A stretch of 32,000 nucleotides of DNA. Origin: Trichlorobacter lovleyi SZ (GTDB lineage Bacteria; Desulfobacterota; Desulfuromonadia; Geobacterales; Pseudopelobacteraceae). This document shows, one piece after another, positions 5,629 through 26,452 of the stretch. Under the pieces are notes generated by a model, which made no database searches, was not told the origin of the DNA, and saw only the letters and a program-made list of their open reading frames with translations. The position numbers were made by a program, and so were the translations under genes. The stretch's first letter is position 1. Each line of letters begins with the position of its first letter. The DNA lies in the NCBI RefSeq assembly GCF_000020385.1, contig NC_010814.1, forward strand, positions 2,700,001 through 2,732,000, read 5' to 3'.

Positions 5629-6843
5629 ATGGCACTGGTAGTCCAGAAATATGGAGGTACCTCGGTCGGCACCACGGACCGAATCAAGAATGTCGCCAAG
5701 CGGATCATCAAGACCTATGAGGCCGGTAATGAGGTGGTGGTGGTGGTTTCCGCCATGTCAGGCGAGACCAACAAACTGGTGGCGCTGGCCAATGACATGG
5801 TGGATATCCCTGACAACCGCGAATACGACGTGGTGGTTGCCACCGGAGAGCAGGTCACCATCGGCCTGCTGTCAATGTACCTGAAGTCACTGGGCTACAA
5901 GGCTAAATCCTATATGGGCTGGCAGGTGCCGATCATTACCGACAGCACCTTTTCCAAGGCCCGGATCGAAAGCATTGACGACACCAGGATGCGCGCCGAC
6001 CTGAAAGCCGGCAATATTGTGGTGGTGGCCGGTTTCCAGGGCATGGACAAGGACGGCAATCTGACCACCCTCGGCCGCGGCGGTTCCGATACCTCGGCGG
6101 TGGCGCTTGCAGCGGCCCTCAAGGCTGATGTCTGCGAGATCTACACCGATGTTGACGGTGTCTACACCACCGACCCCAACGTCTGCAAAGAGGCCCGCAA
6201 GGTTGAGAAGGTTTCCTACGACGAGATGCTGGAGCTGGCCAGCCTTGGTGCAAAGGTGCTGCAGATCCGCTCGGTTGAGTTTGCCAAAAAATTTAATGTG
6301 GACATCCATGTCCGCTCTAGTCTGAATGAAAACACCGGTACCATGGTTACCAGGGAGGATAAGGATATGGAAGGGATTCTCGTTTCCGGGGTTGCGTACG
6401 ACAAGAATGAAGCCAAGATTGCCGTACTGGGAGTACCGGACAAACCGGGCATTGCAGCACAGATTCTCACCCCGCTCTCTGATGCGGCTATTTCAGTCGA
6501 CATGATCGTGCAGAACGTCAGCCATGACGGCCTGACCGACTTTACCTTCACCGTCACCAAGGCCGACCTGAAGAAGGCCCTGCTGATCACCAACGAGGCT
6601 GCCAAAGAGATTCAGGCCCAGGAGGTTCAGTCTGACGAGAACATCAGCAAGATCTCCATTGTCGGCCTGGGCATGCGCAGCCACGCCGGTGTTGCCACCC
6701 GTATGTTTTCGGTGCTGGCCAAGAACAACATCAACATCGGCATGATTTCCACCTCCGAGATCAAGGTTTCCGTGGTGATCGACGAAAAATACACCGAGCT
6801 GGCCGTACGGGTGCTGCACGAAGAGTTCGGCCTGCAGGGATAA
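5629..6843 (+). CDS. lysC: Aspartate kinase with C-terminal ACT domains
   Basis: 404 aa. VVQKYGGTSVG N-terminus, GRGGSDT motif and two ACT-like regions at the C-terminus. AAGGAG RBS upstream. Confidence 0.93.
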   Translation: MALVVQKYGGTSVGTTDRIKNVAKRIIKTYEAGNEVVVVVSAMSGETNKLVALANDMVDIPDNREYDVVVATGEQVTIGLLSMYLKSLGYKAKSYMGWQVPIITDSTFSKARIESIDDTRMRADLKAGNIVVVAGFQGMDKDGNLTTLGRGGSDTSAVALAAALKADVCEIYTDVDGVYTTDPNVCKEARKVEKVSYDEMLELASLGAKVLQIRSVEFAKKFNVDIHVRSSLNENTGTMVTREDKDMEGILVSGVAYDKNEAKIAVLGVPDKPGIAAQILTPLSDAAISVDMIVQNVSHDGLTDFTFTVTKADLKKALLITNEAAKEIQAQEVQSDENISKISIVGLGMRSHAGVATRMFSVLAKNNINIGMISTSEIKVSVVIDEKYTELAVRVLHEEFGLQG

Positions 6844-8198: not shown

Positions 8199-11100
8199 CT
8201 ACCCCTCCCCGTGCAGCACAAACACCCCCCAGTAAAACGGGTTGGGATACTTCTTGCGCATCTGCTCCCGGGCCAGTTTCAGGGCCAGGGCATGGGGCTT
8301 GCCCTGTTTGAGATAGCCGTAGAAGAGCGTGACATACTCCACCGCCGGTTCCGAGGCCACCTCCCACAGACTGACCACCACGCTGCCCGCACCGGCCGAC
8401 TGGAAGGCCCGGGCAAAGTTGGCCACCCCTTCCCCCTCCACCTCTTTCCCCACCCCGGTCACACAGGCAGACAGCATCACCAGCTCGGCATTCAGCTTCA
8501 GATCAAGCACCTCACTCAAGGTAAGAAAGCCATCGCTTCCACTCCGCTTGTCCCGTTGACTCAACAGGATGAACGGCTCGTTCACCTCCTGAATCATGCC
8601 CGGCAGCGAGGCATGGGTGGCAAAATGCAGATAGCGGTACCCCCCCAGCGGGGATTGTCTCAGCATTGATTCTGTGGCCTGTGATCCCAGCAGGATGTCC
8701 GGCGGTTGAATCGCCGTACCCAGCAGGGCTGCAATCCGGCGCACCTCAGCCTCAGTCTCCGGCAGCGGGGGAAACAGAACCGGTTGCCCGTACTGTTTCG
8801 GCACAACTGACAGACCACGGAAGCCCTGCTGGTTTCCTGCTGTTGTCCCGAAGTCGGGATTGCCAAGGGCAAACAGGCTGCGGGTCGGCTGCCCACCCGG
8901 CAAGGCACGTTTCAAGGCCAACAGGCTGGCAGACTGGTAGTAGGAGACCGCATAGCGATCTCCCAGATAGCCGGCCTCTTTGATAGAGGCAGTGCCAGGC
9001 AGCGCCAGGATCTCAAACGGCAAAGTGCCAAGGATACCATCCGGCACGATGATCAGCCGATCTGTTGGACGTGCATCGGACAGCCCTTCGGCCAGCAGCA
9101 GCCGGTACAGTTCTGCAGCCTGCGGTTGCGAGAAGTCCTGTTGATGGCGGTTAGTAAGCGGCTCCAGGAAGTTCTTAATCTTTTCTTCCAGCGCAGCCCT
9201 CTTCAGCGGTATCCGCACCACCCGCTGCACACCACCTTTCCTGACCACAAACAGGTAACCGGCATCCTCACCCAGGGCATAGGCCAGCAGCAGTTCATTG
9301 GCTGCCAGCGGCAACTGTTCAGCCGCAACCGGGCGGGGATAGTTGATGGCTGCGTAGAGGGGGAACTCCCGCTGCAGCCGGGCGATCAGGCGTTCAAAAC
9401 GCTGATGCAGGGCCTGACGTTGCTGCTGATACTGGCTATAGGATGCTGCCCCACCACGCACGGCCTGATCACGACCGGCATCCAGGGCAGCCAGCTGCTG
9501 GCGCAGTTGCAGTTCCTCTTCACGTAACACAGCAGGCAGGCTGTTTGACGCCACAGAACTGCGCCCACTTTCGGCCACCCGCTCAATCAGGGTCCTGGCC
9601 TTGCTTGCCTCGGCAAAATAAAAGGCGGCAGCTGCATTACCGCCTCCATAGTTCCGCAGCTCCGGCACAATCGGATCGCCACGCAGGGCCTGCTCAGCAA
9701 CGCTGGCGGTCAGGGCGCGATAGGTGCGAAACCGTCCGCCACCGCCCCCTGCGGTCAGAAATGAGCCTCGTTCAGCGACTGAAGAACGCAGTTCCTCCAG
9801 CAGCTGATAGGATTTCAGCAGATGCCGGCTTGCCCCGGCATACTCACCACGCCCCAGCAAGGCGCGACCGGTCTGCATCTCATGTTCAGCCACCACCTGC
9901 TCACCTGCCAGAGCCGCCGGAGTCTGTTGCTGCAGTAATGCCAGGGCCTGATCATAGCGGCCGGTCTGCAGATAGACCTCAACCAGACCGGGATGTCGCA
10001 AGTTGACCCCGCTTTTATCAATCTGCAGCCGCCGGCGTTCATTCAGCAGTTGTTCTGCCGTACCTGGATCACCGTTAAAGAGATAGGCAGCGGCAAGGTT
10101 ACTCAACCCCAGGGCGATATCGAGCTTATTGCCGATACTACGCTTCAGTTCAAGGGCCTGCTGATGCCAGCGGATCGCTTCGTCATAGCGTTTGGTTTGA
10201 TAATACACCATGGCAATGTTGTTCAGATTGGTGGCCATCTCCTGTCTTGCGCCGATCTCCCGGTTGATCCGCAACGCATCCTGATAGCTCGCAAGGGCCC
10301 GGTCCTGCTGCCCCAGCGCCGCATACAGATCACCGATGTTATTGCCTGCCGTGGCCAACATCCCCTTGCGACCCAACTCTTGGGCCAGAATCAGGGCCTG
10401 CTGGTAGTAGCTCCGCGCCTGTTCATACTGACCGGACCCCTTATACACCACTCCAATATTATTAAGTATATTTGCCTGTTGGCGTTTATCTCCCAGACGT
10501 TTGGCAACCCGCAGTGCCTCATCAAAAGCAGCCAGGGCAGCGGGGATCCTGTGCAGATCAAACTCGTTCAGCCCTTTGCGGTTCAGGCTTGAGCAAAGAT
10601 CCTCCTCCAGATTGGCGCGACGCTGGATAGCAATGGCCTCCTCATAGTAACCCGCGGCCTGGTTGTAATTGCCTGACATGTTGCTGGCCTGGCCCAGGGT
10701 TGCCAAGGCATTTGAAATTCCCGCATTGTTCCGCAGCCGGCGGTTGATGCCAAGCGACTCCTGCAGATCGCGGATCGCCTCCGGATAACGCCCCAGCACG
10801 GTCTTGACCGTTCCGGTATGAAACAGCAGCAGGGCTGTCTCATCAGCCTTGCGAATCTGGCGATACAGCTTCAGAGATTCTTCCAGAAAAGGCAAGGCGC
10901 GTTGATGCTGCTCCAGCCCTTTGTACAACAGTGCACCAAGGTTCAGCAGATCATTGGCCAGATCCTCGGGATTGTTGCGTTGTCTGCTCAACTGCAGTGC
11001 CTGTTCGTAATAGCTGCGTGCCCTCTCATTCTGATCAAGGGCATCATAGACCACCCCCAGTCCGTTCAGGTTGGCCCAACGGCAGTCAACATCATAGCCG

Positions 11101-11276
11101 CACAGGGCAAGGGAGCGTTCAAACAGCCTGATCGCCTCGGGATAGCGCTTGACTTCAGTGGCCTTACTCCCCTCTTCCCAGAGGTTTTCCGCCTCGTTCT
11201 TACCGGCAAAGCCGGACGAACAGAAGTTGAACAGCAGCAGCAGGGAAAGAACGGGTATGACAACGCGACGGGTCAT
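8199..11276 (-). CDS. Secreted TPR-repeat protein with C-terminal CHAT (caspase-fold, clan CD) protease domain
   Basis: 1025 aa. Signal-peptide-like N-terminus MTRRVVIPVLSLLLLFNFCSSGFAG. Long array of TPR-like repeats (recurrent A..Y.EALxL). C-terminal CHAT signatures LIIVPDGILGTLPFE, HFATHA (His codon 8613-8615) and LVMLSACVTG (Cys codon 8463-8465). Confidence 0.85.
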   Translation of the reverse strand: MTRRVVIPVLSLLLLFNFCSSGFAGKNEAENLWEEGSKATEVKRYPEAIRLFERSLALCGYDVDCRWANLNGLGVVYDALDQNERARSYYEQALQLSRQRNNPEDLANDLLNLGALLYKGLEQHQRALPFLEESLKLYRQIRKADETALLLFHTGTVKTVLGRYPEAIRDLQESLGINRRLRNNAGISNALATLGQASNMSGNYNQAAGYYEEAIAIQRRANLEEDLCSSLNRKGLNEFDLHRIPAALAAFDEALRVAKRLGDKRQQANILNNIGVVYKGSGQYEQARSYYQQALILAQELGRKGMLATAGNNIGDLYAALGQQDRALASYQDALRINREIGARQEMATNLNNIAMVYYQTKRYDEAIRWHQQALELKRSIGNKLDIALGLSNLAAAYLFNGDPGTAEQLLNERRRLQIDKSGVNLRHPGLVEVYLQTGRYDQALALLQQQTPAALAGEQVVAEHEMQTGRALLGRGEYAGASRHLLKSYQLLEELRSSVAERGSFLTAGGGGGRFRTYRALTASVAEQALRGDPIVPELRNYGGGNAAAAFYFAEASKARTLIERVAESGRSSVASNSLPAVLREEELQLRQQLAALDAGRDQAVRGGAASYSQYQQQRQALHQRFERLIARLQREFPLYAAINYPRPVAAEQLPLAANELLLAYALGEDAGYLFVVRKGGVQRVVRIPLKRAALEEKIKNFLEPLTNRHQQDFSQPQAAELYRLLLAEGLSDARPTDRLIIVPDGILGTLPFEILALPGTASIKEAGYLGDRYAVSYYQSASLLALKRALPGGQPTRSLFALGNPDFGTTAGNQQGFRGLSVVPKQYGQPVLFPPLPETEAEVRRIAALLGTAIQPPDILLGSQATESMLRQSPLGGYRYLHFATHASLPGMIQEVNEPFILLSQRDKRSGSDGFLTLSEVLDLKLNAELVMLSACVTGVGKEVEGEGVANFARAFQSAGAGSVVVSLWEVASEPAVEYVTLFYGYLKQGKPHALALKLAREQMRKKYPNPFYWGVFVLHGEG

Positions 11277-11327
11277 GCAGTTACCCCCTGATGAAAAGCC
11301 TGTCTCAGACCTTGCAAGATGTCACCA

Positions 11328-14153
11328 TCACCGTACCTTCCCCACAGGGAACCCCTGCCCACTGATGGAGACCGTGGGAAACTGGGCACGTTTGAAAATC
11401 TTCTCTGCCAGATTCGGCACCTCATCCTCCACATAGGCGGCCAGATCGGTGGTTTTTATATAGCCGCTCCGCCCTTTGTCAGCCTTGCCCTGCAATCCCT
11501 GCACCAGAGTCCAGGTAAACAGCCCATGGCCCTGATAGCCCTCCAAGGCCTCCTGGACAGAGGTAGAGGCAGAAAGGATGGTGGAACCCACCGCACGGGA
11601 CAGCACCTTCATGGCGGTATCCTCACTCATACCGCGGGTCAGAAGGGCGGTCTGCATGGCCTGCCCCAGCTGACCGGCGTTGCAGGTATCGATCACGATC
11701 AGCTTCTTGGTGGAGGGTATGTTGGCCACCAGCTCTTTCAGCGCAGTCTGGGACAAGGCATCACTCTTCAGCTTTTGCGTACTGAGTGCACCAACATTGG
11801 AGGTAATCAGAAAATATTCACCTTCGTCAACCGTGCCGTGGCTGGCAATGTAGAGGATGAACAGGTCATCAGGATTGATGGCCTGGTAGCGTTGCAGGGC
11901 GCCGACAATCGCATCCCGGCTGGTGGCTTCCCGGGTAGTCAACGGGGTAACCCTGACCTCTTCAAACAGGCTGCTGGCCGCCGTGCGCAGGGTCTCGGCA
12001 AACAGATCGGCATCGGCCACGGCGTACTTGAGTTGCAACTTCGGATTACGGAATTCCTGTACACCGATCACCAGGGCATGCAGGGTTGGCTTGCGAATTG
12101 CAGAAAAACTGGCCTGCACCTGATGAACCGCCTCATTGCTCTGCATCGAGTTGTCGGCATTGAAGGCAATGGCCCGAATGGTGTTGCTGCCGGGGGAAAG
12201 CTTGAGGGTATAACTGCGATAGGTTGCATCGCCCCCCTCCTTCTGCACCGCCTTAAGCGAGCGGCTGCTGTCCAGCACGACGGCTGAGCCGTTCAGGAAC
12301 AGCCGCACATCACCAACACCGCCGCCCTGTTCCTCAAGCTTCAGAGTCAGTTTGAATGTCTCGTTGGCAGAACTGACAGCTGTCTGGACGATGCTGGCCC
12401 TGGGAGGCTGTTTGACATCGGCCAGGGTGCGGTACCCCTGCAACGAACCGCCGGCCAGGGCCAGCTTGACCAGGTCGGGTCGAAAGAAGGTCTCGCGGTA
12501 ATTCTCGATGCCATAGATGTTGCTGCCGACACGGACGTTTAGGTACTTATCGCCGTTGGCAGAGGCGTTGTAGTAGCCATCCGGGGTGATAATAATCCAT
12601 TCGCCATCTTCAAAGGTGTACAGATCAGCCAGCTGTTGTTTGGTTTTCCTGCTGCGCAGCTCAAGCTTGTGCCCTGTATCGTGCGTATAAAAATCACCCG
12701 TATTCCTGGTCAGAAAAATCATCCCCTGCAGCTGTCGGTAACGTTGCAGCTCCTGATAGCCGTCCTTCATGAACTCCGGGGGAACCTTGCGGTACAACTC
12801 GTGCGGGTCGAGCACCTCCCAGTCACCCCCCCCCAGGCCGCCGACCTTGGTCCCCTTCAAGCGTGACCGGGTGGTCACATTCTGTTGCTTCAGGGTGGCG
12901 GTCTCCAGATCCCACAGGTGAAACTTCAGCACGGCCTCTTTACGAGAGGCTGACCACTCCTCATGCCAGTTGAGTAGCCGGTTGCCGGAACACAACGAGC
13001 TTCTGAAACCGGCCGGCCTGACCCCAAAGCTCCTGACCAGCTCACCGGTCTGCGTCTGCCAGACCCGTACCCTGCCGTCATTAAACCCAACCCCCAGCAG
13101 TCCGTTGGCAGCAAGCGCATAGGGCCTCGCGTCATAGTTCAGTGATACATGCAGGTTCTCAAAAAGCAGTTTTCTCTCTGTGTACATGCCGTTTTTCAAC
13201 GGGGTGAGCAGCACCAGTTCCATGCGGGCTGCCTGGGGGGTATCGGTTCTATAGACATAGCCGACCAGCAGCCTGCCATCAGGTTCAAATCTGAAAAAGA
13301 GCTGTTCATCCCCGAAACCACCGATCACTTTTGTCTCTTTTATCAGCTCCCGCGGCGTATAGCTGAACACCGGCTGACCGGTTGCCAGATCGTACAGCTG
13401 TATGGCGCTTGAAGACCTCCCCCCCTGATAGGCCACCAGTTTTCCATCCGGTGAAAGCTTGAACTTAGCGCCATGAGAAATGGTTGGAATGACCAGCGAA
13501 CCTTTCCTGCGAACATTCAGGCTATCGTCATACAACACATAGCTAACAGTGCCATCCGGACCTGTGCCCTTGTGGAATACGCCGTAATAGCCGAACCCCA
13601 GATCGGTAACGCCATTGTTCTGGGTATAGATCTCATAGTCTTTATAGCGATTGATCTCTGGCAGGACCAGTTCTGAACCATCCTTCATGCTGTAGATTTT
13701 TATACCGAAAGAACCGTTAAACAGGTACTGACCGTCCTTACCGATGGCCGGATTCTGTAAAAACACGGGGCCTGCAAATCTGGGCAAGGTAATCGAACGC
13801 AGCTTTTTCCCATACAGATCATAGAGTTCGGCTGTTTTTTGATATAGAACCATGAAGGTGCTGTCATCGACAAAATAGATATTCGAGGCACGACCATATT
13901 CCGTTTGCAGCTTGATGGTCCTGATCTCCCGGCCGCTGGCCACCTCCCAGGTCTTCAGGTACCCCTCTGCCTCCTTGCTGACCAGATGACTGGCGCCCGG
14001 ATTGATGGCAACGAATTCGACGAGACCGGCATGCCCGGTTTGGGCAAAAACCTCCTGTTTGTCGGACGCCCATAAAGCCCCCGGCAACGTCCCCAGCATA
14101 AAGCAAAACACCACCGCAGTCAGCATCCAGATGGTTTGAAAGCTGCGCGCCAT
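11328..14153 (-). CDS. Secreted beta-propeller / Ig-like / peptidase C14 (caspase/orthocaspase-type) multidomain protein
   Basis: Start reassigned to ATG at 14153, preceded by GGAGGAG. This gives 941 aa beginning with the signal peptide MARSFQTIWMLTAVVFCFMLGTLPGALWA. The N-terminal two-thirds has repeated beta-strand-rich WD40/TolB-like segments (RVWQTQTGELVRSF, LSPDGKLVAY). An Ig-like segment follows (FKLTLKLEEQGGGVGDVRLFLNG). The C-terminal ~255 aa (about 11331-12095) is a caspase p20-like domain with HALVIGV, ASHG (His codon 11838-11840) and VIDTCNAG (Cys codon 11682-11684). Confidence 0.85.
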   Translation of the reverse strand: MARSFQTIWMLTAVVFCFMLGTLPGALWASDKQEVFAQTGHAGLVEFVAINPGASHLVSKEAEGYLKTWEVASGREIRTIKLQTEYGRASNIYFVDDSTFMVLYQKTAELYDLYGKKLRSITLPRFAGPVFLQNPAIGKDGQYLFNGSFGIKIYSMKDGSELVLPEINRYKDYEIYTQNNGVTDLGFGYYGVFHKGTGPDGTVSYVLYDDSLNVRRKGSLVIPTISHGAKFKLSPDGKLVAYQGGRSSSAIQLYDLATGQPVFSYTPRELIKETKVIGGFGDEQLFFRFEPDGRLLVGYVYRTDTPQAARMELVLLTPLKNGMYTERKLLFENLHVSLNYDARPYALAANGLLGVGFNDGRVRVWQTQTGELVRSFGVRPAGFRSSLCSGNRLLNWHEEWSASRKEAVLKFHLWDLETATLKQQNVTTRSRLKGTKVGGLGGGDWEVLDPHELYRKVPPEFMKDGYQELQRYRQLQGMIFLTRNTGDFYTHDTGHKLELRSRKTKQQLADLYTFEDGEWIIITPDGYYNASANGDKYLNVRVGSNIYGIENYRETFFRPDLVKLALAGGSLQGYRTLADVKQPPRASIVQTAVSSANETFKLTLKLEEQGGGVGDVRLFLNGSAVVLDSSRSLKAVQKEGGDATYRSYTLKLSPGSNTIRAIAFNADNSMQSNEAVHQVQASFSAIRKPTLHALVIGVQEFRNPKLQLKYAVADADLFAETLRTAASSLFEEVRVTPLTTREATSRDAIVGALQRYQAINPDDLFILYIASHGTVDEGEYFLITSNVGALSTQKLKSDALSQTALKELVANIPSTKKLIVIDTCNAGQLGQAMQTALLTRGMSEDTAMKVLSRAVGSTILSASTSVQEALEGYQGHGLFTWTLVQGLQGKADKGRSGYIKTTDLAAYVEDEVPNLAEKIFKRAQFPTVSISGQGFPVGKVR

Positions 14154-14179
14154 AGACTCCTCCAGTCGACACATCAAGT

Positions 14180-14482
14180 TCAACGTACCAGCCGCCATAA
14201 AATGCTGCCAACCACAATCACAAACGTTACCAACAGGGCCGCCACCACAAACCGGTGCGGAACAAATCCGGGATGCTGGCCACCACCTGCGGGAGTACCC
14301 CCGGCAGGAGATTTTCGGCGTCGCATACCCTGCAACAGTGCAGTTGTCAGGCCGCCGAACAAAAGGCTGAAGGCGAGAAAAAAAGCTGCACTGCCAGGCT
14401 GTTCTGCAGTGAACACAAGACCGGAAGTCACCAGGCTGAAGATGGTACAGCATGCGAAGACAACCAGCATGGCAATGCGCAT
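14180..14482 (-). CDS. Small predicted integral membrane protein (three hydrophobic helices), first gene of the caspase/CHAT operon
   Basis: 100 aa from ATG 14482, with AAGGGG 6 nt upstream. Three about 20-aa hydrophobic stretches are separated by a basic Gly/Pro-rich loop (MRRRKSPAGGTPAGGG). Ends 26 nt before the caspase gene start. No family recognised, so coding status rests on ORF, RBS and hydrophobicity only. Confidence 0.5.
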   Translation of the reverse strand: MRIAMLVVFACCTIFSLVTSGLVFTAEQPGSAAFFLAFSLLFGGLTTALLQGMRRRKSPAGGTPAGGGQHPGFVPHRFVVAALLVTFVIVVGSILWRLVR

Positions 14483-14623
14483 GACCATCCCCTTTCTTTA
14501 CACCGCATGAACTGCTCACCATGATAGCACAATCCTGGTGGTTTTCAGGGTTGGCTTGCAGATCTATCTGTTGCTGGTATAGTCGATGCTGCAATCTCAC
14601 ACAACAACACACGAGGATTCAAT

Positions 14624-19608: not shown

Positions 19609-19676
19609 ATCGAACATGACGATTTGACAACCGAACTACTATTGCTAAAATCACTTGCAGGCGGTGTAGCCACCGC

Positions 19677-19828
19677 CCTAACAGGGCTGTAAAAAACGTA
19701 ATGAGGAAGGCCGGATACCAGACGCACGGAACACAGTGACTGAGACATAACAACCAGTTAGTCGAAGGAGCGAGTACCGCGCAACGCCGTAGACAGCCTC
19801 CGGAATAGTTTTTCAAAGCCCTGTTAAA
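19677..19828 (+). repeat. Copy A of a ~150-nt noncoding repeat with a long closing inverted repeat (REP/MITE-like or structured RNA)
   Basis: Gap-free 125-nt core (19692-19816) aligns by hand to 26316-26440 with 19 mismatches. TAACAGGGCT (19679-19688) is complementary to AGCCCTGTTA (19817-19826), and the helix extends to about 19 bp with 2 mismatches. Confidence 0.65.
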
Positions 19829-19847
19829 TCCACGCAGGAGGTTTGCT

Positions 19848-20189
19848 ATGGAGAAGGACCGGTTGAAGTCCATCCTGGCAGGAATGGGCATCGCCAGCCT
19901 CGTTGCAGGCATGGCGGTTGTTCCGTTCAACGCTCAGGGCGCGAGTGGTTGAGGCGGCAAGGAGGGTGCCGGGAGCACCCCGAAGAAGGAAGCCGGCACA
20001 AGTGGCTGAGGCGGTAAGAGCGGCGCCGGGAGCGCCGAGACCCCCAAAGACAAAGATGGCAAGCAGACCCCGGATGACAAGAAACCTGCAGAGAGCAAGC
20101 CTGCAGAAAAACCGGCTCCAAAGCCGGGCGGCAGCGGCTGAGGTTCAAGTGGTTGAGGCGGCTCAACCGGCGCCGGGAGCGCCAAGTAA
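19848..20189 (+). CDS. sbtA: Selenocysteine-type SbtA-family precursor peptide with four in-frame UGA (Sec) codons
   Basis: ATG 19848 with AGGAGG (19836-19841) 6 nt upstream. In-frame TGA at 19950, 20007, 20139 and 20154; TAA stop at 20187-20189. Translation with U for TGA: MEKDRLKSILAGMGIASLVAGMAVVPFNAQGASGUGGKEGAGSTPKKEAGTSGUGGKSGAGSAETPKDKDGKQTPDDKKPAESKPAEKPAPKPGGSGUGSSGUGGSTGAGSAK (113 aa). Each U occupies the Cys position of the SGCGG motif of the upstream paralogue. The leaders are homologous, and hairpins follow each UGA. Confidence 0.8.
19964..19980 (+). promoter_or_regulatory. SECIS-like hairpin 1
   Basis: GGGTGC-CGGGA-GCACCC (6-bp stem, 5-nt loop). It begins 11 nt after UGA-1 (19950-19952). 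Confidence 0.55.
20021..20037 (+). promoter_or_regulatory. SECIS-like hairpin 2
   Basis: CGGCGC-CGGGA-GCGCCG. It begins 11 nt after UGA-2 (20007-20009). Same loop as hairpin 1; the stem sequence differs but base pairing is preserved. Confidence 0.55.
20151..20168 (+). promoter_or_regulatory. SECIS-like hairpin 3 (candidate)
   Basis: GGTTGA-GGCGGC-TCAACC (6-bp stem, 6-nt loop). It begins 9 nt after UGA-3 (20139-20141), and its 5' arm contains UGA-4. Different loop from the other three, so less certain. Confidence 0.4.
20169..20183 (+). promoter_or_regulatory. SECIS-like hairpin 4
   Basis: GGCGC-CGGGA-GCGCC. It begins 12 nt after UGA-4 (20154-20156), with the same loop and register as hairpins 1 and 2. 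Confidence 0.55.
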
Positions 20190-20345
20190 AAGATCACGAT
20201 AGTTGTATGACCGGGCGGCAGGGTACACTCATCTCTGTCGCCCGTTGCTTAGACCAACCACCTATTTTTCAGGAGGCCCGCCATTTTCCCCACGACCCGA
20301 AAACTGCTGGGACAGGATGCCTGGAATCGTCTGATCGGCAAATCC

Positions 20346-26047: not shown

Positions 26048-26305
26048 ATGATTATCAAAACAGGAGCCGTCGTCATTCATCCCGGAGCAGCTGCATGGGG
26101 CGTTGGTAAAATAACCGAGGTGGCAGCCCTGAAGGCAACCATTCAGTTCAGTGACGGCATCATCAGGAAGATCGCCTCTTCCCATTATGCCAGCCTGCGC
26201 CCCGGTGATCCGGCCGACTTTGTAGCCTTGGTGGAAAGCGCACCGGTTGAAAAGGTCCGCGCCCCCCCCAAACGGACAAAGAAAGTTAAAGAGCTGGCGG
26301 CCTAG
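26048..26305 (+). CDS. Small DUF3553-like protein
   Basis: 85 aa from ATG 26048 (AAGGAG 5 nt upstream; the ORF-track start at 26006 lacks an RBS). The motif VIHPGAAAWGVGKITEV...IQFSDG resembles the HP..WG.G core of DUF3553 proteins (recollection). Basic C-terminal tail. Confidence 0.5.
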   Translation: MIIKTGAVVIHPGAAAWGVGKITEVAALKATIQFSDGIIRKIASSHYASLRPGDPADFVALVESAPVEKVRAPPKRTKKVKELAA

Positions 26306-26452
26306 CAGGCTGCTGAAAAACGTCATGAGGAAGCACGGCTACAAGGCGCACGGCGCACAGCGACTGAGACATAACAGATAGTTAGGCGAAGGAGCGAGCA
26401 CCGCGCAACGTAGTAGACGGGCTCCGTAATAGTTTTTCAACAACCTGCTAGA
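26301..26452 (+). repeat. Copy B of the ~150-nt noncoding repeat
   Basis: Core 26316-26440 matches 19692-19816. The closing helix CTAGCAGGCTGCTGAAAAAC (26302-26321) pairs with 26432-26451 at 18 of 20 positions. Its left end overlaps the TAG stop (26303-26305) of the upstream gene. Confidence 0.65.

Follow-up and report, generated by a model that had tools for sequence, protein, structure and literature searches.

A probable four-selenocysteine SbtA precursor gene hidden by in-frame UGA codons upstream of sbtM in Trichlorobacter lovleyi SZ

We analysed a 32,000-nt stretch of DNA from Trichlorobacter lovleyi SZ (contig NC_010814.1, positions 2,700,001–2,732,000; hereafter the window, numbered from its first letter), which contains a plus-strand reading frame of 113 codons running from ATG 19848 to TAA 20187–89. 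Four in-frame TGA codons, at 19950–52, 20007–09, 20139–41 and 20154–56, correspond to codons 35, 54, 98 and 103 of this frame. The region 19848–20189 is very probably sbtA, the precursor gene of a selenocysteine (Sec)-containing peptide, with its partner SbtM encoded immediately downstream and working by the mechanism proposed below. A first-pass annotation made from the sequence alone had described a hidden frame with four TGA codons here, and we confirmed all of its coordinates as well as the AGGAGG placed 6 nt before the ATG, at 19836–19841. The open reading frame (ORF) list gives only 34 aa, ended at 19952, and the public gene calls do likewise, in keeping with the earlier remark that the ORF track lacks this frame. 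The TGA codons occupy the contexts AGT-GGT-TGA-GGC-GGC, AGT-GGC-TGA-GGC-GGT, AGC-GGC-TGA-GGT-TCA and AGT-GGT-TGA-GGC-GGC, respectively. Each lies within S-G-x-G-G or S-G-x-G-S, as had been stated for all four, and the peptide read with Sec (U) carries four S-G-U-G motifs. The features of the locus are listed in Table 1.

Table 1. Features of the sbtA/sbtM locus, in window coordinates.
Feature	Position	Strand	Basis or remark
sbtA precursor, Sec at codons 35/54/98/103 (probable)	19848–20189	+	translation, TIGR04081, orthologues
Shine-Dalgarno sequence AGGAGG, 6 nt before ATG	19836–19841	+	sequence; relatives keep (C)AGGAGG or GGAGG
UGA1 (Sec35)	19950–19952	+	covariance-model match 19950–19985, 50.5 bits
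UGA2 (Sec54)	20007–20009	+	covariance-model match 20007–20042, 43.3 bits
UGA3 (Sec98)	20139–20141	+	without covariance-model match
UGA4 (Sec103)	20154–20156	+	covariance-model match 20154–20189, 44.7 bits
Hairpin 1, GGGUGC-CGGGA-GCACCC, 6 bp, 5-nt loop, -9.6 kcal/mol	19964–19980	+	fold
Hairpin 2, CGGCGC-CGGGA-GCGCCG, -10.2 kcal/mol	20021–20037	+	fold
Hairpin 3, GGCGC-CGGGA-GCGCC, -7.8 (5-bp core) to -9.3 kcal/mol	20169–20183	+	fold
Alternative local hairpin GGUUGAG-GCGG-CUCAACC, 7 bp, -11.1 kcal/mol	20151–20168	+	folds
Predicted secretory (Sec-type) signal peptide, residues 1–31	19848–19940	+	K/R n-region, hydrophobic core, A-Q-G↓A motif
sbtM, radical SAM/SPASM thio(seleno)oxazole maturase, 519 aa	20283–21842	+	TIGR04082; probable ATT start, AGGAGG 20271–76
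Cys-only SbtA-like paralogue, 109 aa	19279–19608	+	ORF; BLASTP to sbtA E = 4e-10
Sigma-70-like promoter, TTGACA, 16 nt, TAAAAT, TG-extended	19624–19651	+	11/12 consensus positions
Small hairpin GGCGGUG-UAGC-CACCGCC, predicted transcript 5' end	19660–19677	+	fold
Rod-like palindromic repeat, about 150 nt, in sbtA 5' leader	19677–19827	+	fold; second copy in window
12-bp hairpin then UUGCUU, between sbtA and sbtM	20212–20244	+	fold; not called by terminator scan

With U replaced by C, the sbtA peptide scored 39.2 bits against NCBIfam TIGR04081, the model of the SbtA thio(seleno)oxazole precursor of a ribosomally synthesised and post-translationally modified peptide; this is above the cut-off of 30.5, and the match covers residues 1–25. 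Residues 1–34, which precede the first TGA, are exactly ACD96254.1, annotated as "hypothetical protein Glov_2540". The UniRef name for Glov_2540 is "Selenobiotic family radical SAM modification target peptide", and the precomputed annotation of this 34-aa stub assigns it PF27804. A Pfam search of the sbtA peptide and of the Cys-only paralogue gave no match, and a database search with the U-to-C peptide returned three relatives only, with no full-length Sec version among them. The sbtA sequence was the same in four independent metagenomic assemblies.

The sbtM gene starts 93 nt downstream of sbtA on the same strand. The ORF listing starts it at TTG 20346, from which the product scored 681 bits against TIGR04082 (cut-off 350) over model positions 24–516. 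When read from ATT 20283, which sits 6 nt after a perfect AGGAGG, the score rose to 694.8 bits over positions 1–516 of 516, and the extension regained the conserved L-G-x-x-x-W N-terminus. This non-canonical ATT is most likely the start, rather than TTG 20346; database versions of SbtM are 498, 511 and 519 aa long, as annotators differ on this point. The radical SAM motif CxxxCxxC is present as C-D-L-S-C-K-H-C, Cys clusters of the SPASM type are seen at the C-terminus, and PF04055 and PF13186 are on record for this protein. SbtM is 498/498 identical to ACD96255.1, that is, Glov_2541. Because SbtM is Glov_2541 and the stub before the first UGA is Glov_2540, the locus corresponds to the already published precursor gene; it is not new but is the published SbtA/SbtM system. 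Our additions to that system are the count of four Sec, the finding that the four UGAs have only three canonical Sec insertion sequence (SECIS) hairpins, a leader resembling a signal peptide, a Cys-only paralogue and a SECIS consensus for the family. The family, also called "selenobiotic" or "selenobacteriocin", reportedly goes back to Haft & Basu 2011 and Lewis et al. 2021. We take T. lovleyi to be the organism of the SbtM biochemistry; the perspective and reviews on the system do not name the organism. Work from the Bandarian laboratory showed that SbtM makes a thio(seleno)oxazole by taking four H from Gly-Cys or Gly-SeCys, Haft having predicted a Sec-containing precursor beside sbtM, and the SbtA precursor was described as "longer than initially proposed... 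at least two SeCys" (PMC9204691; PMC11002830).

Through an SbtM alignment we reached at least 580 genomic loci and fetched 80 of them for comparison; these represent Geobacterales and other Desulfobacterota as well as Syntrophales and Nitrospirota. Precursors were found by scanning for the leader motif with a regular expression and reading TGA as U, which gave 59 precursors beside sbtM in 53 of the 80 loci; more were found by the covariance model described below. Sec residues numbered zero in 6 of these precursors, one in 9, two in 23, three in 18 and four in 2, the last being sbtA of the window and its counterpart in locus L011, and one apparent five-Sec precursor is a probable read-through artefact. 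The first-pass annotation had called four Sec exceptional. This stands in comparison with the maximum of 2–3 Sec that a 2026 review gives for any prokaryotic selenoprotein, which lists the family as "Selenobacteriocin, TIGR04081, SGUG, 2" Sec (PMC13188914), but several Sec are normal in the SbtA family, with 2–3 typical and four at the upper end.

The in-frame TGA codons of the relatives sit at G-x-G motifs, in a layout that recurs in dozens of genomes. The alignment of orthologues that had been suggested shows TGC in place of TGA at homologous motifs in L005, L047, L064 and the JGI protein record P0121, and all-Cys precursors occur in L029 and L074. The TGA columns are thus conserved, and sometimes read TGC, in place of the frame disruption named earlier as a contrary sign. 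P0121 itself reads S-G-W-G-G at two sites, its gene caller having evidently translated TGA as Trp, which hides its Sec; most other public SbtA records end at the first TGA. A genetic code with TGA as Trp or Gly was ruled out by stop-codon usage: because TGA ends 10 of the 23 window genes, sbtM included, the standard code applies and the recoding is gene-specific. The same normal use of TGA in this genome, and the fact that all automatic gene calls end at 19952, would suit a first UGA that is a true stop, with the gene reduced to the 34-residue Glov_2540 and a non-coding frame downstream. We consider this very unlikely. More than 40 genomes keep 170–246 nt without TAA or TAG past the first TGA, ending just after a conserved S-G-U-G-G; TGA alternates with TGC, and the hairpins described below are specific to TGA sites. 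Moreover, the 34-residue product would amount to a signal peptide alone, leaving SbtM without a G-C/U-G site to modify.

A 99-codon ORF in another frame (19903–20202) is uninterrupted and has a TTG start, and the Cys paralogue only 240 nt upstream could be taken to mean that the region is its decayed pseudogene. Comparison with relatives rejected both readings, which we regard as improbable in the extreme. The frame of the 99-codon ORF lacks a Shine-Dalgarno sequence and contains 1–5 stops in each of L001–L005 and L012–L026; because both alternative frames hold stops in close relatives, this ORF is not a conserved gene. Against decay, TGA is kept at the exact motif positions with covarying hairpins across Geobacterales, Desulfobacterota and Nitrospirota, and the four metagenomic assemblies carry an identical sbtA.

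The hairpins themselves (bacterial SECIS, bSECIS) lie downstream of UGA1, UGA2 and UGA4. Three copies of the 15-nt motif GGYGCCGGGAGCRCC are present in the window, where 0.04 would be expected, and they begin 15 nt after the U of UGA1, UGA2 and UGA4, respectively; the presence of this motif at three TGA, together with the layout recurring in dozens of genomes, indicates more than chance. Hairpin 1 differs from hairpins 2 and 3 in a U-A pair that replaces their C-G. The published bSECIS model allows a 3–9 nt loop, a 4–16 bp stem, a G in the first two loop positions, 16–37 nt from UGA to loop and an energy of at most -7.5 kcal/mol. Checking the region against this model, as the first-pass annotation had advised, we found that hairpins 1–3 agree with all of its constraints, with a 5-nt CGGGA loop, a stem of 5–6 bp, 17 nt from UGA to loop, and G at loop positions two and three.

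Across the family, we defined a hairpin as one starting 12–20 nt downstream with at least 5 bp, at least three G-C pairs, a 3–5 nt loop and an early loop G. Such a hairpin follows 97 of 122 TGA sites but only 1 of 30 motif-Cys sites (Fisher p = 3e-15); among the remaining codons of these genes it follows 293 of 3719 (Fisher p = 3e-77). At nearly all family sites it starts 14–18 nt after the U of UGA. Where Sec lies 5–6 codons from the stop, the hairpin comes after the stop codon, as in (A)UAGYGC-GGUC-GCRCUA(U); its position in the 3' untranslated region (3'UTR) for C-terminal Sec marks it as an RNA element rather than a peptide requirement. Within coding sequence, pairing is kept while the peptide varies (G-A-G-S-A, G-A-G-S-T, G-T-V-S-T). 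In 41 distinct constant-spacing sites, chosen for pairing in register, one pair was C-G in 24 sites and U-A in 15, and the outer pair, which was not used for site choice, was G-C in 19, C-G in 11 and U-A in 2. The covariation score was 0.356, versus 0.173 when shuffled (0 of 500 shuffles reached 0.356), and it collapsed in slid registers. A covariance model built from constant-spacing hairpin sites and searched over 656 kb on both strands gave 90 matches, nearly all just upstream of sbtM; these included loci outside the set from which the model was made, about 10 of which the leader scan had missed. In the window, the strong matches were three, exactly at UGA1, UGA2 and UGA4, with two weak off-target ones. 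A weak match at 5730–5775, in an aspartate kinase gene (18 bits, E = 0.12), was set aside as chance, its TGA being out of frame. Taken with the family hidden Markov model (HMM), the SbtM neighbour and the conservation of TGA, the TGA-specific hairpins support the earlier claim of a coding gene with four UGAs read as Sec.

The N-terminus of the upstream paralogue resembles a signal peptide, and the protein carries four S-G-C-G-G motifs and a single C-P-K-C. The first-pass annotation had described a leader homologous to this gene, and the BLASTP alignment (E = 4e-10) bears this out over the N-terminal region and the first two S-G-[C/U]-G-G motifs; the last two motifs of the two peptides match by order and twin arrangement only. 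The codon pattern AGY-GGC-TGC-GGY-GG that had been given for the paralogue holds for three of its motifs, and the fourth reads TCC-GGC-TGC. No SECIS-like hairpin accompanies the paralogue Cys codons. TIGR04081 gave this protein 21.9 bits, under the cut-off of 30.5, and it is probably a second SbtM substrate missed by current models. We found the same Cys-only paralogue upstream of sbtA in L005 (3097–3438) and L011 (3069–3407), and in all three loci it has four S-G-C-G-G motifs, C-P-x-C and its own signal-peptide-like N-terminus.

What had been termed a leader is correct as to N-terminal homology, but its anatomy is that of a secretory signal peptide. The leaders of all 59 homologues begin with 1–5 Lys/Arg residues followed by a hydrophobic core, and this is the only part that TIGR04081 models. 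In Geobacterales, an A-x-A-type site stands directly before the first S-G-U-G-G (A-Q-G↓A-S-G-U in sbtA). An L-x-G-C lipobox was seen by eye in about 18–20 other precursors, of which a strict regular expression finds 9. Based on these features, the SbtA leader appears to be a secretory or lipoprotein signal peptide through which the peptide would be exported by the general pathway. The precursor is the only gene conserved with sbtM across the 80 loci, forming a minimal two-gene cassette, and we found no conserved transporter, protease or immunity gene beside sbtM in these loci. The signal-peptide or lipobox leader, together with this absence of a transporter or protease, argues for an exported metal- or redox-active peptide rather than an antibiotic. 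The bufferins, which are copper-binding thiooxazole peptides with signal peptides (PMC12538549; PMC12668002), offer a working analogy; since they combine these features with the absorbance at about 305 nm that they share with the SbtM product, we favour, with low confidence, a periplasmic soft-metal-binding or redox role for SbtA over that of a bacteriocin. The exported-peptide reading thus bears on the function of the SbtA/SbtM system.

In the mechanism that we propose, transcription would start from the conserved promoter near 19624–19651. UGA35, UGA54 and UGA103 would be translated as Sec, each by means of a GGYGC-CGGGA-GCRCC hairpin 12 nt past the codon, which, judging from its anatomy and from comparison, would act as a SECIS recruiting SelB with Sec-tRNA(Sec). 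UGA98 would be decoded via the third hairpin, or via a local hairpin with UGA103 in its stem. Cytoplasmic SbtM would then oxidise Gly-Sec, or Gly-Cys in the paralogue, to 5-seleno- or 5-thio-oxazole. Because residues 1–31 would act as a signal peptide of the secretory type (a lipoprotein signal in other lineages), the Lys/Pro-rich modified peptide could be exported by the general secretion machinery with neither a dedicated transporter nor a protease. In the periplasm it may bind soft metals or take part in redox chemistry, as an anaerobic counterpart of the bufferins.

Several observations weigh against this mechanism or parts of it. UGA3 lacks both a hairpin at the standard distance and a covariance-model match, and the sequence of the local hairpin around UGA4 is not conserved in L011, where a different local hairpin is formed. 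An Rfam search of the window for SECIS, at gathering and permissive thresholds, gave no relevant match. The overall figure of 96.7% paired in the covariation set is biased by the in-register selection of sites; the pair-type counts and the TGA-versus-Cys statistic are unbiased. In the Nitrospirota loci L038, L045, L049 and L056, the upstream in-frame UGAs have no detectable local hairpin and the last UGA alone has one, AUAGUGC-GGUC-GCACUAU, in the 3'UTR, which suggests another SECIS type or longer-range action. The 32-kb window contains none of selA, selB, selC and selD, and ARAGORN found no tRNA in it, so there is no tRNA-Sec there. Geobacter species are Sec users, and a search of the literature on Sec machinery or selenoproteins in G. 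lovleyi found nothing useful. The metal-binding role is argued by analogy with the bufferins only. Finally, the chemistry of SbtM comes from in vitro work on synthetic peptides (PMC9204691; PMC11002830), and Sec incorporation, export and the in vivo product are predictions.

UGA3 lies 15 nt before UGA4, and hairpin 3 starts 30 nt downstream of it. The 32 nt from UGA3 to the loop are still inside the 16–37 nt range of the published model, and hairpin 3, which would serve UGA4, possibly serves UGA3 too. The local hairpin is another candidate SECIS for UGA3: it contains UGA4 in its 5' arm, and its G-rich loop spans +19 to +22 from UGA3, versus the canonical +20 to +24. Alternatively, read-through may be partial, with UGA1 and UGA2 read as Sec and UGA3 mostly a stop, so that the main product would have 97 residues and two Sec, with little or none of the four-Sec form being made. 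The lack of a covariance-model match at UGA3, the tight family spacing of 14–18 nt from the U compared with +30 for hairpin 3, and the wording "at least two SeCys" in the perspective all point that way. We nevertheless judge it unlikely. The twin layout S-G-U-G-x-S-G-U-G-G and the frame beyond it are kept in L011, whose SbtM is 66% identical, and the twin motif recurs in the Cys paralogue as S-G-C-G-G-A-S-G-C-G-G. Furthermore, twin UGAs only 9 nt apart in L035 and L079 have one hairpin only, and UGA3 has both the loop of hairpin 3 within the model range and the 7-bp local hairpin, whose loop lies at the canonical distance. Because UGA3 shares hairpin 3, uses the local hairpin or partly terminates, the earlier statement that each Sec needs its own local signal is not simply borne out: there are three canonical hairpins for four UGAs. 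Twin UGAs with one standard hairpin form a compact natural test of how recoding depends on the distance from UGA to SECIS. A broader proposal is that one SECIS can serve two UGAs 9–15 nt apart (in the window, L011, L035 and L079), and that the product with four selenooxazoles is a metal-binding peptide, exported or, in other lineages, lipid-anchored; rather than a bacteriocin, it would be the equivalent in anaerobes, based on selenium, of the copper-binding bufferins. We put this forward tentatively, as a possibility with the balance of judgement somewhat against it.

The sbtA transcript has several further features. The arrangement GATTTGACA...TAnnAT is kept upstream of sbtA in L001–L005 and L011–L014, which is consistent with promoter function at 19624–19651. 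The small hairpin at 19660–19677, for which L005 has a hairpin of other sequence at the same place, would have a stabilising role. The positional conservation of promoter and 5' hairpin in Geobacter loci suggests a strongly expressed, stabilised sbtA mRNA separate from that of the paralogue. The palindromic element that follows makes the region 19655–19850 strongly folded (-70 kcal/mol, z = -4.9). At 26301–26440, between a Tex-like gene and trpE, the window has a second copy with 84% identity over 141 nt, and a 70-nt stretch has an 83% match to a Nitrosomonas plasmid. Related loci lack the element at this position, and it has no Rfam match. Its absence from relatives and its second window copy lead us to regard it as an inserted palindromic repeat; it looks like a small dispersed repeat of the miniature inverted-repeat transposable element (MITE) or repetitive extragenic palindromic (REP) kind, outside the Sec system, and a riboswitch reading of the structured leader was dropped on the same two grounds. 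The hairpin at 20212–20244 may be a leaky or partial terminator or a 3' stabiliser, either of which would raise the ratio of precursor to enzyme.

The window neighbours of the cassette are valS, a gene for an L-2-hydroxyglutarate-oxidase-like flavoprotein and trpG. Elsewhere in the window, the minus strand of 8199–14612 carries two very large adjacent genes, for a 1025-aa TPR/histidine-kinase-like protein and a 1094-aa protein whose C-terminal "caspase, EACC1-associated type" domain scored 75 bits, below cut-off. This pair may be a signalling or defence module, unrelated to sbtA.

The locus illustrates that a recoded gene truncated to 34 residues by automatic callers can be recovered from a reading of the sequence, and the four Sec of the sbtA peptide exceed the maximum of 2–3 quoted in the 2026 review of prokaryotic selenoproteins. 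The family SECIS consensus, a 5–6 bp G/C stem with a GG or GU loop 12–15 nt after the UGA codon, placed in the 3'UTR for C-terminal Sec, could aid correct annotation of such genes.

Compared with the SbtA/SbtM system as described, the locus shares the family HMM, the identity with Glov_2541, the S-G-U-G motif, UGA with SECIS and the two-gene cassette. It differs in the number of Sec, which was originally one, then "at least two", and two in the 2026 review, as against four here. The perspective, which limits the SbtA/SbtM pair to strains of Geobacter and Desulfobacteria (PMC9204691), and the reviews of this system do not mention that four UGAs come with three hairpins, that the leader resembles a signal peptide or carries a lipobox, or that a Cys-only paralogue exists.

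The bufferins and the other thiooxazole metallophores made by multinuclear non-haem iron (MNIO) enzymes (bulbicupramide, fontiphorin and oxazolin) are likewise ribosomal peptides in which Cys is converted to 5-thiooxazole. Bufferins absorb near 305 nm as does the SbtM product, have repeated modification cassettes per precursor, carry N-terminal secretory signal peptides and bind copper in the periplasm, where they act. However, their heterocycle is made by an MNIO enzyme (DUF692) that requires oxygen and has a DUF2063 partner, whereas SbtA depends on an anaerobic radical SAM/SPASM enzyme. Neither a DUF692 nor a DUF2063 gene is found among the window neighbours of sbtA, and beside the precursor only sbtM is conserved in the 80 loci. 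Bufferins have no known selenium, and their likeness to SbtA is a working analogy, not membership.

With classical bacterial SECIS elements of the Escherichia coli fdhF type, the sbtA hairpins share a position just 3' of UGA and inside the coding sequence, a short G/C stem, a small apical loop with G-G or G-U, and a distance of about 11–12 nt from UGA to the minimal helix. They differ in their stems of 5–6 bp and in the presence of three elements within 240 nt; in addition, sbtA relatives use the 3'UTR for C-terminal Sec, and one sbtA UGA is without a hairpin at the standard distance. Eukaryotic selenoprotein P is unrelated in sequence, has no heterocycles and uses long-range 3'UTR SECIS elements with SBP2 and eEFSec, but it resembles the proposed sbtA product in its many UGA-encoded Sec, in being secreted and in having fewer SECIS than UGA.

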